IMG/VR virus record: IMGVR_UViG_2737471865_000001
Span: 1-34,668 of that record
Direction: 5' to 3' (one strand)
Length of the DNA: 34,668 nt
Source: a virus
Lineage: Duplodnaviria > Heunggongvirae > Uroviricota > Caudoviricetes
Positions 361 to 26,781 of the stretch are shown one piece after another. The notes below the pieces were generated by a model, which worked only from the letters and a program-made list of their open reading frames with translations, had not been told where the DNA came from and ran no database searches. The stretch's first letter is position 1, and the number at the start of each line of letters is the position of its first letter. Position numbers and translations under genes: made by a program.

Positions 361-519
361 TTGGTGTTCTTTCAGTTCTTCAATTCGAATATTGGTTACG
401 TCTGCATGCGCTATCTGCGCCCATATCATCCAGTGGTTATAGCAGTCGTTGATGTCCTCTGCTTCGATAACTCTGTTGAATGGTTCTCCATTCCATTCTC
501 CTGTGACTCGGAAGTGCAT
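352..519 (-). CDS. hypothetical small protein (55 aa), not in the ORF track
   Basis: My own translation of the minus strand: MHFRVTGEWNGEPFNRVIEAEDINDCYNHWMIWAQIAHADVTNIRIEELKEHQAA. ATG at 517..519 preceded by GGAG; stop lies inside the terminator hairpin. Below the track's length cutoff. Confidence 0.35.
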   Translation of the reverse strand: MHFRVTGEWNGEPFNRVIEAEDINDCYNHWMIWAQIAHADVTNIRIEELKEHQAA

Positions 520-530
520 TTATCATCTCC

Positions 531-590
531 ATAAAACAAAACTCGCCGTAGCGAGTTCAGATAAAAGAAATCCCCGCGAATGCGAGGATT
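531..590 (-). terminator. tandem hairpins downstream of the DUF551 gene (minus strand)
   Basis: Hairpin ACTCGC-cgta-GCGAGT (541..556) followed on the minus strand by TTTGTTTTAT. A second hairpin around 572..587 (CCTCGCATTCGCGGGG on the minus strand) is followed by a T-rich tract; the same core motif recurs at 17120..17143 on the plus strand. Confidence 0.4.
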
Positions 591-693
591 GTTAGTTGCG
601 CTCTGCTGCTGCCTTAGCCATTACCATATCCACCCAATTTCACCAGACATGATTCTCGCAATCACTATCATCACCAAAGTGATAATCACGACT

Positions 694-1353
694 TTAACTG
701 ACGGCACATTCACCATCCTGCTGCGGTGGTTCAGGAATCGGCATCCATCTGATTACATCGCAATTACGTAGGCTGATGTCATCTCCAAGCCATCCTTGAC
801 CTTCAGACCAGCATTGCACGTAATACCCGTCTTCGGCGTCAACTACGCACCACTGCGCGTCGTTCGGCATTCGATCACTACAGCTTATCCAACTATCCGG
901 AGTTACCGGATAGTTGCGCATTGCGACCTTTAATGCCTCATAGAAGCAACCTTTCAGATTGCTGAACTGACGCCCATTTAGCGGGCCGTGTTCAGTCAGC
1001 ATGTTGTGTAATTTCCATGCCGCGTCGTTTACTTCGCTGGATGGCAGGGAAGGCAACTTGTAAGTTTGGCTTACAGGTTCGGCTTCCAGTTCTGCTATGC
1101 GTTTTTTTGCTGCCTCCAGCTCAACACGCAGCTTCCCTACCGTTAGCGCAATATCCTCGTTCTCCTGGTCGCGGCGTTTGATGTATTGCTGGTTTCTTTC
1201 CCGTTCATCCAGCAGTGCCAGCACAACCTGAGGTGTGACTTTCATACGAAATGCCAGCAATTTTTGAGGCGTTGCTACTGTTTCAATTGCTACTGCTGCC
1301 TCACGCAGTACCTGATAGTCAATCTTGCTCACTGGTTGCCTCCTTTGCGCCAC
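694..1353 (-). CDS. DUF551-domain phage protein with coiled-coil N-terminal half
   Basis: 219-aa ORF; C-terminal W...CSDRMP...WCVV...RWMPIPEPP matches the DUF551 signature common in enterobacterial prophage early regions. N-terminal half is charged and coiled-coil-like. Confidence 0.6.
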
Positions 1354-3844: not shown

Positions 3845-4356
3845 TATTTGCTCCTGTAGAATTCGCCGTGATGCTTTCTGGCAAAGTCGCAGTAAGCTTT
3901 TTTGGCATCTTCTAATTCATTAAAGTACCCTAGATGTTTTTTCTTTCCGTTTAATTTCCCATAGGCAGCCCACTTTCTACTTTCCTTCTTCCATGTGACT
4001 CCTTTGCAACCTGATTTGTTGAGGGTGTTTATTTTACTATTCATTGAATTCTGTGAGTAAGTTGCAAGCCTCAGATTGCAAATTCTGTTATCTGTCTTAA
4101 TGCCATTTATATGGTCGATAATACCTTCAGGCTCAACACCGAAAGTGATAATCCATGCAAGTCTATGTGCAGCATAGTGTCTTCCGTTAATGAAAATCCT
4201 TAAGTAGCCGCTTGTTGTTATTGTTCCGGCAGTTCCACCTATCTTCCTTGCTCCATAAGATTTTAGCCATGTGAACTCACCAGAAATAGGGTTATATTTG
4301 ACAACATTATTAATCTCACTTAGGGAAATTAATTCAAGAATCTTTATAAATGCCAT
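3844..4356 (-). CDS. HNH homing endonuclease with AP2-type DNA-binding domain
   Basis: HNH_3-type motif GIIDHINGIKTDNRICNLRLATYSQN followed by an AP2-like GVTWKKESRKWAAYGKLNGKKKHLGYFNELEDAKKAY. AT-rich coding sequence. The track start is TTG at 4369..4371; ATG at 4354..4356 with an AGGA RBS is more likely. Confidence 0.8.
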   Translation of the reverse strand: MAFIKILELISLSEINNVVKYNPISGEFTWLKSYGARKIGGTAGTITTSGYLRIFINGRHYAAHRLAWIITFGVEPEGIIDHINGIKTDNRICNLRLATYSQNSMNSKINTLNKSGCKGVTWKKESRKWAAYGKLNGKKKHLGYFNELEDAKKAYCDFARKHHGEFYRSK

Positions 4357-4437
4357 TTTATATCCTATCAACTGCGTTCATTAATCAGCGTTTACGCTCA
4401 TGAATAAACACCTCTCGTGAAGCGTTATTGTTATGCA

Positions 4438-7328: not shown

Positions 7329-7478
7329 TGACAAAACAACTCAGTCCTTACCAGGACAAAATTCACAAACACATACTACGTGATCGCTTCCTGTCCAGCT
7401 TCAAGCAGCCTGGTCGATTCCGGGCTGAGTTGGAAAAAGTGAAGCTGATGCAGAAGGAGAAAGGTCATGAGTAATCTT
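7329..7478 (+). CDS. hypothetical small protein (49 aa), not in the ORF track
   Basis: My translation: [55 protein letters not shown]; its stop overlaps the O start. Confidence 0.35.
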
Positions 7479-8327
7479 GCAACCGTAACACATTTAAGGC
7501 CTTCACAACGGCCTGTGGAGCGTCGTGTGGCAGAAGTTGAAGATGGTTATACCCGTCTTGCAAATGCCCTGTATGAAGAGCTTATCGGCGCAGATTTAAC
7601 GAAAAATCAGAGCAAGGTTGCCCACGCCATATGCCGTAAAACATACGGCTACGGTAAAAAGATGGATCGCATCTCTGATAGTCAGTTAGCTCAAATTACC
7701 AGGCTGCCAAGACAGAAGGTAAACAAGGCCAAGAATGAGCTTATCGCGATGAAGGTTATCCTTCGCGAAGGCCAGCAAATCGGGCCTAACAAGAACATCG
7801 AGGAATGGCAAATCGAAGGGTGTCACTACTCTGGTGATAATGTCACTGCATTGGTGACAAAAACTGTCACCAAAACGGTGACAGCGCTGTCACCAAAACA
7901 GGGACACACAAAAGAAACTATTACAAAAGAAAAAAGAAATAATAAAAACACTATGTCCGAAAGTGTTCGGACGGAGTGTGAAAAATCACATGACCGTCAC
8001 GAAGAAACCGACAAGGCATTCGAGGAAATATTCTGGTGTGCAGGCATGCGGAAAGCCGGGAAGAAAAACGCAGCTTCGGCATTCAGAACACAGTTCAGGG
8101 AATGGCGTAAAACTACCAGGGGTACGGCAAGCGAGTTTGCCACGATGCTGGCAGAAGACATCGCATGCAGGAATGGTAAGCAGTTCGGATTCGACAGGTT
8201 GTTACCATCGAGCTATCTGAACGGTCAGCGCTGGAACGACGAGAAGCCAGAAACTATTCAACCACAATCCAAACCATCATCCGCAATCACCGTATCGAAA
8301 ACTGGCTACGTGTTTTTCGACAGGTGA
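7467..8327 (+). CDS. O: replication initiator, lambda O-like N-terminal domain
   Basis: N-terminal [55 protein letters not shown] is the lambda O / Phage_rep_O DNA-binding domain. Internal linker [20 protein letters not shown] is encoded by iteron DNA. Confidence 0.85.
7819..7955. repeat. origin of replication: seven alternating GGTGACA/TGTCACC iteron motifs plus adjacent AT-rich tract, inside the O gene
   Basis: Motif copies at 7821, 7833, 7841, 7853, 7865, 7878 and 7889 at roughly 11-12 bp spacing, followed by an A/T-rich tract 7896..7955 (aaagaaactattacaaaagaaaaaagaaataataaaaac). Same architecture as ori-lambda. Confidence 0.7.
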
Positions 8328-8434: not shown

Positions 8435-11341
8435 ATGACGCCAAGTGAACTTAGCGATCTGCTTTGGGTGCAGGTTGACAGGGTGGCTCCGCACCTGTTG
8501 CCAAACGGCAAGAAAGAGGGGCATGAGTGGGTTGCCGGTAACGTCAACGGTGACAAGGGAAACAGCCTTAAGGTCAACCTTAGCGGCAAGAAAAAATGGG
8601 CTGATTTCGCTGAGGGAGACGGCGGTGACATGCTTGATTTGTGGATGGCATGTCGTGGAATTAACCTGCATCAGGCGATGCATGAAGCGAAAGCATTTCT
8701 CGGAATCAAGGATGACGATCACCATTTCGATGCCAAACGTGAGAAGAAATTCTCCAGACCTGATCGCAAGAAGATCGCCCGCTACGTTACCAGAACAGAA
8801 TCCCATCTTGAGTACCTGCAATCGCGTGGTATATCGCCAGAAATCGTAAAGCGCTACGAGGTTGTCAGCGGCAAGGTGTGGAATGGAGAGCGGGAACTGG
8901 ATGCTCTGGTGATTCCGTACAAACGCGATGGTGAGTTGTTGCAGGTCAAGCGAATCAGCACTGAGCGCCCGGACGGGAAGAAAGTCATTATGGCAGAAGG
9001 TGATTGCGAACCTTGTCTGTTCGGATGGCAGGCTCTGGACGCTGGCGTGAGGGCGGTTGTGCTTTGCGAAGGCGAAATTGATTGTATGAGCTATGCGCAA
9101 TACGGCATCTCGGCGTTATCCGTGCCGTTTGGTGGCGGGAAAGGCGCTAAGCAACAGTGGATTGAGTTTGAGTATCACAACCTCGACAGGTTTGAGGAAA
9201 TATTCATCTCGATGGACGTTGATGATGTTGGTCGTGAAGCCGCAAGGGAAATCGCAAGCCGACTCGGTGAACATCGTTGCCGTCTTGTTACTCTGCCGTA
9301 CAAAGACATCAACGAATGCCTGATGAACGGTGTTACCGAGGATGAAATCTGGCAGTACATTGGCACGGCATCCTACTTCGATCCTGAAGAACTCTACAGC
9401 GCGCGAGAGTTTTACCATGACACTATCAACGCTTTCTACGGCAAGCAGCAGTATCTGTTTAATCCACCGTGGGAATCTCTGGCAGATAAATTCCAGTTCC
9501 GTGAGGCAGAATTGACGCTGGTCAATGGTGTGAACGGTCACGGAAAAGCCTGTCCACTTGATGAACCAATTCTGCTCGCTAATGGTGAATGGACTACTCA
9601 CGGGGATGTAAAAATTGGCGATCAGGTGGCATCAGTAGACGGCAATCCGTCAACTGTCACCGGGATATTCCCGCAGGGTGTTAGAGATGTTTACCGAGTC
9701 ACATTTGAAGATGGTCGTTATGTTGATTGCGCAGGCGATCACCTATGGGAGGTCACTAGTCGTGGATTCACGAAAGGCGAGAAGCGCCGCGTGATAGACA
9801 CCTTCGAGCTGAAACGGTTGAGTGAAACGAAGAGGCACAAAAATGGCGTCAGGATACCCGAAATAACTGGTGACTTTGGCGACCACTCAGAGCCATTAGC
9901 ATGGGTTATCGGCTCCCTTCTCGGGGATGGTAGTCTTAGCAATGGGAGCGTGAAGTTTTCAAACGTCGAGCCATACATGATCGAGCGTATGAAGGCTGAA
10001 CTGCCTGATTACAACTTCTCTGGAGATGGTAAGGACTGGCTGATATCAACGGCGCGTGGTCAGGTAAATCCACTCATGGAGACCCTGCGAGTTTATGGAC
10101 TAATGGGGTGCACAGCAAAAAACAAATTCATCCCTCGTGTGTTTTTTTCCGCAAACAAATCAACGCGTATAGGAATGCTGTGTGGTCTGCTTGAAACGGA
10201 TGGTTATGTCGAGAAGGATGGAACGCTTGTTTTTTCCTCAGCAAGTGAAGAACTGCGTAATGGGGTTGTTCAACTGGTTAACTCACTCGGCGGTTCATGC
10301 CGGACGCGAGTTAAAACTGGCGTGACATACACATACAAGGGCGATAAGCGGCATGGGATGGATTCATATGAGGCAAGGATACGACTGACAAGGGAAATCA
10401 GGGAGGCCATCCGTTCACCACGACTCAATGGCAGATTAACTGCGCATCGATTCGAGGGGTGTGGGGTATTCGTCAGGAATGTTGAAAAAATCGGCAATGC
10501 AGAATGCTTGTGTATCATGGTCGATCACCCTCGCCACCTGTATGTAACCAGAGGATATGTGGCAACGCATAACACCGAGGTTGTCGGGCATATGGCACTT
10601 GAGGCAATGCGTCAGGGTGTGAAGACGTGCATCGCGTCACTTGAGCTGAAGCCTGGTATTCTCCTTAAGCGCCTTACCCGTCAGGCGACGTGCTGCAAGA
10701 TGCCGCCAGTGCTGGAAATTGACTCTGCATTTAAATTTTATGACGAAAGACTTTGGGTGTTTGGTCTGACCGGAACGGCGAAAGCCGACAGGCTGATCGA
10801 AATATTCGACTACGCTCGCCGCCGATACGGCATCCAGTTATTCATCATCGACAGCCTGATGAAATGCGGCATAGGTGACGATGATTATAACGGGCAGAAG
10901 GCGTTTGTTGACTCGATTTGCGACTTCAAAAACAAAACAAACTCCCACGTCATTCTCGTTACTCACTCGCGAAAAGGAGACAGCGAAGAAAAACCAACCG
11001 GGAAAATGGACGTAAAAGGCTCTGGAGCGATAACAGACCTGACAGACAACCTTTTCATCATCTGGCGTAACAAGGCTCGCGAGAGAGCGTTACAGAGAGT
11101 TCAGAGTGGTGAAAAGATGTCAGAGAAGGACGAACAGCTACTGGCATCTCCGGCATCTGTTTTGATGCTTGAAAAACAACGTAACGGCGAAGGTTGGGAA
11201 GGTGGTGTCCCGTTGTTCCTTGACGAGCAATCGCACCAGTTCCTGCAACTTGAATCAGGGTCGCCATATAGCTACATCGCTAATATGCCGAAATCGGAAT
11301 ATGACGAGGCGTGGCGACAGGAAAACGTGACGGAGTATTAA
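8435..11341 (+). CDS. bifunctional DNA primase / SF4 (DnaB/T7 gp4-like) helicase, interrupted by an in-frame intein
   Basis: 968 aa. N-terminal primase region with TOPRIM motifs (VLCEGEIDCMS; ISMDVDDVGRE). P-loop NGVNGHGKA at residues 365..372. C-terminal helicase motifs LFIIDSLM (Walker B), HVILVTHSRKGD and KGSGAITDLTDNLFII align with T7 gp4 helicase motifs. Residues 373..713 are an intein. Confidence 0.88.
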   Translation: MTPSELSDLLWVQVDRVAPHLLPNGKKEGHEWVAGNVNGDKGNSLKVNLSGKKKWADFAEGDGGDMLDLWMACRGINLHQAMHEAKAFLGIKDDDHHFDAKREKKFSRPDRKKIARYVTRTESHLEYLQSRGISPEIVKRYEVVSGKVWNGERELDALVIPYKRDGELLQVKRISTERPDGKKVIMAEGDCEPCLFGWQALDAGVRAVVLCEGEIDCMSYAQYGISALSVPFGGGKGAKQQWIEFEYHNLDRFEEIFISMDVDDVGREAAREIASRLGEHRCRLVTLPYKDINECLMNGVTEDEIWQYIGTASYFDPEELYSAREFYHDTINAFYGKQQYLFNPPWESLADKFQFREAELTLVNGVNGHGKACPLDEPILLANGEWTTHGDVKIGDQVASVDGNPSTVTGIFPQGVRDVYRVTFEDGRYVDCAGDHLWEVTSRGFTKGEKRRVIDTFELKRLSETKRHKNGVRIPEITGDFGDHSEPLAWVIGSLLGDGSLSNGSVKFSNVEPYMIERMKAELPDYNFSGDGKDWLISTARGQVNPLMETLRVYGLMGCTAKNKFIPRVFFSANKSTRIGMLCGLLETDGYVEKDGTLVFSSASEELRNGVVQLVNSLGGSCRTRVKTGVTYTYKGDKRHGMDSYEARIRLTREIREAIRSPRLNGRLTAHRFEGCGVFVRNVEKIGNAECLCIMVDHPRHLYVTRGYVATHNTEVVGHMALEAMRQGVKTCIASLELKPGILLKRLTRQATCCKMPPVLEIDSAFKFYDERLWVFGLTGTAKADRLIEIFDYARRRYGIQLFIIDSLMKCGIGDDDYNGQKAFVDSICDFKNKTNSHVILVTHSRKGDSEEKPTGKMDVKGSGAITDLTDNLFIIWRNKARERALQRVQSGEKMSEKDEQLLASPASVLMLEKQRNGEGWEGGVPLFLDEQSHQFLQLESGSPYSYIANMPKSEYDEAWRQENVTEY
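9551..10573 (+). mobile_element. intein (341 aa) with LAGLIDADG homing-endonuclease domain, inserted in the helicase Walker A loop
   Basis: Begins with Cys immediately after GHGKA (CPLDEPILLANGEW, Hint block A). Two LAGLIDADG-type motifs (VIGSLLGDGSL and LCGLLETDGYV). Ends YVATHN followed by Thr as the +1 extein residue. Flanking exteins together form a contiguous helicase domain. Confidence 0.85.
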
Positions 11342-17143: not shown

Positions 17144-17290
17144 ACATCTGCAGTAAACCGCGCATCGCAGCGCGTAACAATCCCGAGTCTTTCAGAAAGC
17201 TGAGCCTGAGAACTGCCGTATATGGTGGCGACCATCTCGGGGCGGCTTTTCTGTGCGAACAGGCTCATCTTTCTAAAAGGTAAAGACGCT

Positions 17291-17779
17291 ATGAACCAAT
17301 TAGAAGAAAAGCTTCAAAGAATGATTTCCTTATACAAGGAAGATAGCTGCCAAAAAGTTCCTGAAAACATCGCAGAGTTAATGGAATTGGCAAGTGAATT
17401 TTCTGGCATGCTTAAGTCGTCAGGTGTTCGGTCAGCGTTCTTTGTTGAAATGCTGATGCACGGCGGACTTATGGCAACAATGAGACGTGTAATGGAAGAC
17501 CAGAGAAAAGAACCTCCTCAGGTATACGTTTTGTCATCGAAGAAAACTGGGCTAACCAAAATTGGGTATTCATCCAACATTCCACAACGCATCAAATCGC
17601 TTGGCAACTCTGGACCAGACTGCTTGAAGCTTGAGTGCCTGATCCCTGGTGGAAGAGAAACTGAAAACATGCTTCATCGCAAATTTGCCGCAAAGAGAAA
17701 GCACGGTGAATGGTTCGCCCTGTCCAAGGATGACATTGAGGGATTGAAATCTGTAGCGATTACTTCCGATGGCTATTAA
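17291..17779 (+). CDS. T5orf172-domain (GIY-YIG-superfamily-like) protein with helical N-terminal extension
   Basis: C-terminal region VYVLSSKKTGLTKIGYSSNIPQRIKSLGN...ENMLHRKFAAKRKHGEWFAL matches the T5orf172/MUG113 signature (VYVL..G..KIG...N...R...L, then LH..F...R..GEWF). Start taken at ATG 17291 (MNQLEEK...). Confidence 0.6.
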   Translation: MNQLEEKLQRMISLYKEDSCQKVPENIAELMELASEFSGMLKSSGVRSAFFVEMLMHGGLMATMRRVMEDQRKEPPQVYVLSSKKTGLTKIGYSSNIPQRIKSLGNSGPDCLKLECLIPGGRETENMLHRKFAAKRKHGEWFALSKDDIEGLKSVAITSDGY

Positions 17780-26196: not shown

Positions 26197-26781
26197 ATGC
26201 TTTCTGAGAATGCTAAAGATATACCTGGATTTGAAGGTGTTTATGCCGTAACAGAAGATGGCAGGGTGTATTCTCACTCACGTGTTGTTAAGGCTGCGCA
26301 TGGCAGCACGCAACTCAGAAAGGGGCGCTGGTTAAAGCCTAAAATAAATCAGGGAAGGGTGCTTTATAATATCGGAGCAAAATGGACTTTTGCCCATCGA
26401 ATCGTTGCAATGACATTCCTGCCAAATCCTGAAAACAAGCCTCAGGTAAATCATATTGATGGCAATCCACTCAATAATAACGTCAATAATCTTGAGTGGT
26501 GCACTCAAAGCGAAAACATCAAACATGCATACGCCACAGGATTAAAGAAACCAATCAAGTTTTTCGGAACCAAGCACCCAAAACACAAGTTGAGTGATGA
26601 CGATGTTCTTGCAATCAAGTCATCAAAAGAAAGCTTGTCAGTAATTGCGGCTAAGTACGGGATATCTAAGACCTGGGCAAGTAGGCTAAAGCGTGATGCT
26701 AACTGGGTTCATATAAAGGTTGATTCCAATGGCAATACAACAACTACCACTAATGAAGGGATTAGGGAAAAGTGCGGTTAA
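26197..26781 (+). CDS. HNH homing endonuclease (NUMOD4-like N-terminus plus HNH_3 motif)
   Basis: GFEGVYAVTEDGRVYS (NUMOD4-like) and QVNHIDGNPLNNNVNNLEWCTQSEN (HNH). AAGGAG RBS. AT-rich; its 3' end overlaps the recoded start of gene 10. Confidence 0.85.
   Translation: MLSENAKDIPGFEGVYAVTEDGRVYSHSRVVKAAHGSTQLRKGRWLKPKINQGRVLYNIGAKWTFAHRIVAMTFLPNPENKPQVNHIDGNPLNNNVNNLEWCTQSENIKHAYATGLKKPIKFFGTKHPKHKLSDDDVLAIKSSKESLSVIAAKYGISKTWASRLKRDANWVHIKVDSNGNTTTTTNEGIREKCG

Follow-up and report, generated by a model that had tools for sequence, protein, structure and literature searches.

Inteins that interrupt the P-loops of DnaB (DnaB-b), PhoH, Snf2 and phage DnaB proteins form a well-described class 3 family (PMC3196547, PMC6195587, PMC7664689, PMC5050341). 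Class 3 inteins have no nucleophile at position 1 and are defined by a Trp at position 12 of block B (B12), a Cys at position 4 of block F (F4) and a Thr at position 5 of block G (G5) (PMC3196547). Their hallmark is a branched thioester intermediate at block F (Brace et al. 2010; Tori et al. 2010; both cited in PMC3196547). The same paper describes the prototypes (mycobacteriophage Bethlehem DnaB, MP-Catera gp206 and Dra Snf2; Tori et al. 2010, Tori and Perler 2011, Brace et al. 2010) as phage-associated and located in helicase or ATPase hosts. The element considered here lies at positions 9548..10573 of a 34,668-nucleotide stretch of phage DNA (IMG/VR record IMGVR_UViG_2737471865_000001), the whole of which is referred to as the window. 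It is very probably a class 3 intein with a LAGLIDADG homing endonuclease, inserted between Lys371 and Thr714 of a gp4-type primase-helicase. By their description, the prototypes share with it Trp B12, Cys F4, Thr G5 and the lack of a position-1 nucleophile, and an SNF2 host also occurs among the relatives of the window intein.

The intein itself is already known. Smith et al. (2012, BMC Genomics 13:311; PMC3430580) placed an intein with a HintN domain at residues 372-702 of protein P of the Shiga toxin (Stx) phage 24B, and reported orthologues of this protein in Min27 and a Shigella flexneri prophage. Their account of 24B mentions HintN only, with no splicing class and no endonuclease. The 24B intein, also present in Min27, Stx2a_F403/F451 and phiXuzhou21, occupies the same insertion in the same gene as that of the window. 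The 24B and window genes are 97.7% identical in DNA sequence and their inteins 96.3%, with 6 amino acid differences within the intein, and they share the 968-residue length and the junctions GK/ACPL...THN/T (a slash marks the junction or insertion point throughout). The window copy, however, is carried by a P22-like (Lederbergvirus-type) mosaic genome, unlike that of Stx phage 24B, and its closest copy is in phiKp_30 (97.6%). No accessible paper was found that assigns the enterobacterial-phage intein to class 3 or mentions its LAGLIDADG domain, and a literature search combining intein with lambdoid or Shiga phages and primase yielded no further relevant paper. InBase presumably lists an 'EP-Min27 Primase' intein; a literature search for 'EP-Min27' found nothing. 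The element is an ordinary one, as class 3 P-loop inteins number in the thousands; what is corrected here is its boundary and mechanism, which is relevant for annotating these phage genes, designing splicing mutants and using the intein as a tool.

The closest inteins of solved structure are Msm DnaBi1 of Mycobacterium smegmatis (6bs8) and MchDnaB1 of M. chimaera (6rix/6riy). Both occupy the same site, between the Lys and the Ser/Thr of the helicase Walker A motif, and the mycobacterial intein follows SVGK in the DnaB P-loop (PMC6195587, PMC7664689). They share with the window intein Ala1, His65 and Trp67 at the same positions, the block F Cys and a terminal Thr-His-Asn. They are, however, mini-inteins of 139-145 residues that have lost the endonuclease, with Ser at +1 and a DxxH motif, whereas the window intein keeps the endonuclease and has Thr at +1 and AGDH. 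Their host protein is a cellular DnaB, that of the window intein a phage gp4-like primase-helicase, and the HINT domains are only ~25% identical. The window intein would be an endonuclease-bearing class 3 intein in an experimentally tractable Escherichia coli phage, the two solved class 3 DnaB comparators being mycobacterial mini-inteins. In overall architecture (HINT plus a double-motif LAGLIDADG domain) it resembles PI-SceI, PI-PfuI and TliVMA, which are the best matches to its whole structural model (template modelling (TM) scores 0.72-0.77). These three are class 1 inteins (Cys1) with ~15% identity and another host and site; PI-SceI also exceeds the window intein in size and has an additional region for DNA recognition.

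Host gene and boundaries of the insertion

The precursor is a single open reading frame (ORF) of 968 residues (109 kDa) at 8435..11341 on the plus strand, which is also the strand of all of its parts described below. From the ORF list and Pfam, it consists of a Toprim primase and a superfamily 4 (SF4; T7 gp4/Twinkle-like) helicase with the intein inside. Pfam finds Toprim_2 at residues 209-296 and a weak AAA_25 in the precursor; in the intein-less form, a domain search finds Toprim_2 (E 3e-12), DnaB_C and AAA_25. T7 gp4 (5ikn, E 2.7e-23) and Twinkle align with an intein-less orthologue, and the GHGKT of the intein-less protein falls over the GMGKS of T7 gp4, placing the insertion at the equivalent of GK/S. 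The order of domains, a Toprim primase domain and then a RecA-type helicase with a Walker A motif of the form GxxxxGK[ST], is that of SF4 gp4-like proteins. Judged by its sequence, the host protein is a gp4-type Toprim primase/SF4 helicase of a lambdoid/P22-like phage. Current annotations of these phage genes go no further than 'toprim domain-containing protein' or 'P'.

The boundaries of the insertion are given by alleles that lack it. When the window is aligned with the corresponding mEp043 phage gene, which is 98% identical, there is a single gap of exactly 1026 nucleotides (window 9548..10573, 342 codons), and the mEp043 protein has 626 residues with the junction NGVNGHGK/TEVVGH. An identical gap is found with Sf101, Stx2_EH2086, 720R6 and Salmonella SEN22. 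These five intein-less alleles are 87-98.6% identical to the window gene and all read GHGK/TEVV. The coding DNA around the insertion point is GGTCACGGAAAA/ACGGAGGTTGTC in the empty allele, and the empty site of mEp043 is GGTGTGAACGGTCACGGAAAA/ACGGAGGTTGTCGGGCATATGG. Because the empty alleles lack exactly 9548..10573, the intein comprises 342 residues, Ala372..Asn713. On allele alignment and translation, the N-extein (residues 1-371) spans 8435..9547; its last residues, GVNGHGK (9527-9547), form the beginning of Walker A, and their GK aligns with that of T7 gp4 GSGMGKS. On family and allele alignments, the C-extein occupies 10574..11341 and begins with Thr714, the Walker A Thr and predicted +1 nucleophile. 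The insertion point is between Walker A Lys371 and Thr714 (GVNGHGK/T), which Kelley et al. call the 'classic' P-loop intein site (PMC5050341).

A first-pass annotation, made from the sequence alone, had recognized an intein in this P-loop, with Thr as the +1 residue, but had assigned it residues 373..713. All of the strings it quoted are present in the translation: NGVNGHGKA is residues 364-372, followed by Cys373 (from base 9551) and CPLDEPILLANGEW; VIGSLLGDGSL lies at 9905-9937 and LCGLLETDGYV at 10178-10210; and the terminal YVATHN ends at 10573, ahead of Thr714. The allele and family alignments bear out both the location within the P-loop of a phage primase-helicase and the Thr at +1. The comparison with intein-less homologues that it proposed likewise upholds the insertion site; the start moves one codon earlier, to Ala372, and the span 373..713 is short by that codon. 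The difference matters within the motif itself. Excision of 372..713 gives the canonical GxxxxGKT, whereas excision of 373..713 leaves GKAT, an extra residue within Walker A that is present in no natural allele, and the predicted 627-residue spliced product gives way to one of 626 residues, the length of the intein-less protein. The junction peptide of the ligated protein should read ...NGVNGHGKTEVVGH..., with a canonical GKT.

A structural insertion conserved throughout the helicase family was also considered. By megablast, 39 phage-genome records match the gene, 9 at 100% coverage and 30 at 65% coverage in two pieces. The full-coverage records include the Stx2 phages 24B, Min27, Stx2a_F403/F451, phiXuzhou21 and Stx2_16002, and the Klebsiella phage phiKp_30. 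With 30 records empty and 9 occupied, the insert is far from present in all family members, and this explanation was discarded as most alleles are without it.

Two records show disturbances elsewhere in the gene. Min27 has two single-base insertions in the C-extein and 720R6 has a 19-nucleotide insertion there, both aligned near window 10924-10943. These split the gene into two annotated coding sequences ('P' and 'DNA primase' in Min27, two 'DNA primase/helicase' in 720R6); the cause is probably either sequencing error or a genuine disruption.

Splicing class and catalytic residues

The splicing domain contains all four conserved blocks, numbered as in Msm DnaBi1. Block A (ACPLDEPILLANG; 9548..9586) was placed by the Msm DnaBi1 register and the family alignment, and begins with Ala1, which is non-nucleophilic, followed by a clade-specific Cys2. 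Block B (VDCAGDHLWEVT; 9722..9757) carries His65 (9740-9742) and, two residues beyond it, the class 3 Trp67 (9746-9748). Block F (ECLCIMVDHPRHLYV; 10502..10546), aligned with class 3 inteins, contains Cys322 (10511-10513), which is Cys693 of the protein and the predicted initiating nucleophile. Block G (GYVATHN; 10553..10573), from the family alignment and translation, holds the class 3 signature Thr340 immediately ahead of His341 and Asn342. All four class 3 features are therefore represented: no Cys, Ser or Thr at position 1, Trp67 (B12), Cys322 (F4) and Thr340 (G5).

The register with inteins of solved structure is consistent with this assignment. The best sequence matches in the PDB are the DnaB inteins of M. 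chimaera (6rix/6riy, E 5e-10) and M. smegmatis (6bs8, E 1e-7), and these class 3 inteins outrank the class 1 gp41-1 intein; for the endonuclease part the matches are PI-PkoII and PI-SceI. Msm DnaBi1 has Ala1, His65, Trp67, the initiating nucleophile Cys118 and Thr137-His138-Asn139, and the Mch nucleophile is Cys124 (PMC6195587, PMC7664689). When the intein plus four extein residues is used as query, position 1 of the 139-residue 6bs8 chain falls on Ala372, W67 on W67 and C118 on C322, and both inteins terminate in Thr-His-Asn. The catalytic Cys124 of MchDnaB1 also aligns with Cys322. Because Ala1, the Trp-Cys-Thr signature (W67, C322, T340) and the register with the DnaBi1 inteins all agree, the window element is likely a class 3 intein, and the nucleophile is predicted to be Cys693 of block F rather than Cys373.

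The intein belongs to a large family. An exhaustive phmmer search with the intein against 1.84 billion representative proteins gave 16,779 matches at E<=1e-3 and 3,021 at E<=1e-30. A word-indexed protein search with the same query returned 5 proteins only and missed full-length orthologues. The host proteins of the relatives are mainly DnaB, and also PhoH, SNF2 and PriCT + AAA_25 primase-helicases, all P-loop NTPases. Conservation was counted over the query and the 139 top matches spanning the whole intein (n=140). The flanking residues are strongly conserved, with Gly at -2 in 126 and Lys at -1 in 128. Trp67 is invariant, His65, Cys322, His341 and Asn342 are each present in 139, and Thr340 in 138. 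Blocks A, B, F and G with His65, His341-Asn342 and the +1 residue thus make up an intein in which each catalytic position is kept in at least 138 of the 140 (at +1 as Thr in 128 or Ser in 10). Position 1 is Ala in 104, Glu in 13, Gly in 6, Pro in 4 and Cys in 3, and position 2 is Gln in 106 and Leu in 26, with Cys in the query alone. One 357-residue ENA metagenome protein (P0003) is 35% identical to the intein and has no recognisable exteins; it has an Arg at block F position 4 and ends in THC, and could derive from this family as a free-standing or a decayed form.

These counts bear directly on the start at Cys373 in the first-pass annotation, and on the class 1 route that it implied. Under such a reading the element would be a canonical class 1 intein of 341 residues in which Cys373 performs the N-S acyl shift and Ala372 stays in the spliced P-loop. 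Cys is the commonest first residue of inteins, this one adjoins the junction and is followed by block A-like sequence, and 3 of the 140 family members do have Cys at position 1. The five intein-less alleles, however, lack Ala372 as well and read GKT, so that GKAT would put an extra residue within GxxxxGK[ST]. Ala1 of Msm DnaBi1 falls on Ala372 and not on Cys373, and the residue most often found at position 1 of the family is the Ala that this register predicts. Cys373 is instead at position 2, where 132 of 140 relatives have Gln or Leu, and is therefore not a conserved catalytic residue; from the family alignment it is best described as a clade-specific residue rather than the catalytic one. 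The complete Trp-Cys-Thr signature is present besides, with Cys693 (intein C322) as the likely initiator. The class 1 interpretation was rejected because of where the empty alleles place the boundary, the register with PDB inteins and the alignment of the family; it is considered extremely improbable.

One feature of block B departs from the solved class 3 inteins, and counts against the class 3 assignment: the window intein has Ala where Msm DnaBi1 has Asp62 (AGDH in place of DxxH). This position is variable across the family (Cys 74, Gly 21, Asp 20, Thr 11, Ser 10 and Ala 4 of 140).

The splicing route predicted here follows that published for class 3 inteins (Tori and Perler; Kelley 2018; Beyer 2020). 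After translation Cys322 (Cys693), helped by His65 and Thr340, would attack the Lys371-Ala372 bond to give the block F thioester branched intermediate. The N-extein would then be transferred onto the side chain of Thr714, and cyclisation of Asn713 would free a ~38-kDa intein/endonuclease. A final O-to-N shift would restore the GKT P-loop and yield an active primase-helicase of 626 residues (~71 kDa). Because the P-loop, and with it the ATP site, is split in the precursor, both the helicase ATPase and phage replication should depend on splicing. Such dependence has been shown for other P-loop inteins (RadA), as cited in the class 3 DnaB intein literature.

It could still be that the element is a pseudo-intein that no longer splices, in the manner of Arsp-FB24 Arth_1007, with the phage replicating by means of host DnaB/DnaG or a helper phage. 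Prophage genes can decay, and one decayed class 3 intein is documented (PMC3196547). The His B10 and Cys F4 missing from that example are, however, present in the window intein, the ratio of non-synonymous to synonymous substitution rates (dN/dS) of the intein is low (0.04-0.08), and the same allele with an intact 968-residue ORF is found in complete-genome phage records (24B, Min27 and phiKp_30, the last from sewage). A decayed element was rejected on the intact catalytic residues and the low dN/dS, and its probability is put at next to nothing.

Splicing of Msm DnaBi1 has been shown to be redox-gated. Near the catalytic Cys322 the window intein has Cys2 (9551-9553, beside the scissile bond), Cys320 and the family-conserved Cys61. 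By analogy, splicing might be gated through a reversible disulfide of Cys322 with Cys2, Cys320 or Cys61, although this is a speculative proposal to which we assign a low probability. If it were true, maturation of the primase-helicase would pause under oxidative stress. Stx phages are induced by H2O2, and the timing of their replication would then be tied to the redox state of the host.

Endonuclease domain, selection and mobility

Several lines of evidence agree with the first-pass identification of an intein with a LAGLIDADG endonuclease domain: Pfam, PDB sequence matches, the predicted fold and the presence/absence polymorphism. The profile searches it had suggested match LAGLIDADG_3 (34.9 bits against a curated cut-off of 22.5) and Hom_end_hint in Pfam, and models of intein-containing proteins in NCBIfam, where the matches are confined to the intein parts of intein-containing DnaB, RecA, GyrA and RNR models. 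The insertion goes far beyond a chance pattern. An AlphaFold2 model of the intein, built from a 58-sequence alignment, has a mean predicted local distance difference test score (pLDDT) of 96.4 and a predicted TM score (pTM) of 0.93. In Foldseek comparison with the PDB, the whole model matches PI-SceI (E 1e-17, TM 0.75 and up to 0.77), TliVMA, PhoVMA, PI-PfuI and PI-PkoII; the splicing part matches class 3 DnaB inteins, gp41-1, Prp8 inteins and Hedgehog HINT domains; and the endonuclease part matches I-DmoI, I-Tsp061I and I-OnuI. As modelled, the element has the HINT fold, split by the endonuclease domain.

The LAGLIDADG domain covers approximately intein residues 105-300 (9860..10447), as delimited by Pfam, fold matches and conservation. 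Secondary structure of the model and the fold matches show an alpha-beta-beta-alpha-beta-beta-alpha pseudo-dimeric arrangement. Motif 1 (VIGSLLGD127G, 9905-9937) and motif 2 (LCGLLETD218G, 10178-10210) both end their helices in an acidic residue followed by Gly, as in double-motif enzymes. Among the 58 aligned sequences, D127 is found in 48 and D218 in all 58, as is an invariant Lys193 (10124-10126).

The 968-residue ORF is intact, with identical junctions, in the window, 24B, phiKp_30 and two E. coli prophages. Between the inteins of the window and of phiKp_30 or 24B, 24-36 codons differ, of which 3-6 are non-synonymous, which are small counts. By the NG86 method, dN/dS is 0.04-0.08 for the whole intein, 0.05-0.09 for the endonuclease segment and 0.09-0.12 for the N-extein, so that the endonuclease segment is no higher than the N-extein. 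The intein is under purifying selection, and these values point to selection on the splicing and endonuclease functions alike. Base composition is of no help in dating the insertion, because the GC content of the intein (~0.50) is the same as that of its flanks and the time of acquisition is not inferable from it.

In E. coli the gene is present in 289 of 5,426 complete genomes. The intein occurs in 79 of these genomes at 96-97% identity, in all cases on the chromosome and labelled 'toprim domain-containing protein', and the empty site occurs in 210, as contiguous matches to a 200-nucleotide probe across the site. Because 79 and 210 add up to 289, these summary counts suggest that empty and occupied copies do not coexist in any E. 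coli genome, and homing between co-resident prophages may therefore be efficient. Counts of places indicate that ~12 E. coli genomes have two copies of the gene. Occupied and empty sites at ~98% identity, 79 and 210 in number, offer a natural test of intein homing among the prophages of a pathogen.

In homing, the excised intein, or the precursor, would act as a site-specific endonuclease and cut the conserved DNA that encodes the P-loop in the empty allele of a co-resident phage or prophage; repair would then copy the intein into the cut allele. Extein identity among eight close alleles is 98.0-99.7% irrespective of intein status. Only 1 of 35 parsimony-informative extein sites tracks that status, and the remaining site patterns are mutually incompatible; because of this, intein and background are seen as uncoupled, and on these patterns either the intein is transferred between extein backgrounds or the backgrounds are exchanged around it. 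The one tracking site, base 10576, lies 3 nucleotides from the junction, at the third position of the Thr+1 codon. It is C (ACC) in 4 of 4 occupied and G (ACG) in 5 of 5 empty alleles, a synonymous difference that may reflect co-conversion over a minimal tract or belong to the recognition site of the endonuclease. The distribution fits active homing with a very short co-conversion tract. In addition, even the Salmonella allele, at 87% identity, retains ~18 nucleotides upstream and ~30 nucleotides downstream of the insertion point, and flanks conserved in this way would suit a homing site.

Some observations weigh against an intein that is functional and actively homing. The inteins diverge more (96.3-97.6% identity) than the exteins (98.0-98.4%), and therefore no single very recent invasion can account for them. 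The polymorphism could in part result from phage recombination or precise loss rather than from endonuclease-driven homing, and Smith et al. 2012 (PMC3430580) give the function of the 24B intein as undetermined. An intein that still splices while its LAGLIDADG endonuclease is inactive, spread by vertical descent and the ordinary recombination of mosaic lambdoid phages, would account for copies that are 2.4-3.7% diverged, more than the exteins, and lambdoid phages do recombine extensively, as the incompatible extein site patterns show. Against this stand the retention of D127, D218 and K193, a dN/dS in the endonuclease segment that does not rise above that of the N-extein, and the uncoupling of occupancy from extein background. 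The apparent lack of mixed empty/occupied E. coli genomes, despite those with two copies, argues in the same direction, if indirectly and from summary counts. An inactive endonuclease is accordingly thought unlikely, though it is the most credible of the alternatives weighed here.

Genome context and other candidate selfish nucleases

The window is a mosaic P22-like/lambdoid phage genome, and the closest genomes overall are vB_EcoP-720R6, CUS-3, Kapi1 and phiKp_30. Directly upstream of the primase-helicase ORF, in the same replication module, is a lambda O-like initiator (7467-8327).

The first-pass annotation counted the intein as the third selfish endonuclease of the window, which is reasonable in view of two other ORFs resembling HNH homing endonucleases. 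The first (3847-4371, minus strand) encodes 175 residues with HNH_3 (E 1.8e-15) and an AP2 DNA-binding domain, and is of the free-standing phage homing-endonuclease type. It lies in the early left region, in a stretch of low GC content (0.36-0.41). The second (26197-26781, plus strand) encodes 194 residues with NUMOD4 and HNH_3 and is homing-endonuclease-like. It is located between head and tail morphogenesis genes in an island with a GC content of 0.41, and runs into the following ORF, which starts at 26720. A 185-residue ORF (17222-17776, plus strand) immediately after the lysis genes matches T5orf172/MUG113, domains that we take to be GIY-YIG-related, and may be a further selfish nuclease. 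Because two HNH ORFs and one T5orf172 ORF occur elsewhere in the window, the genome would carry several selfish nucleases.

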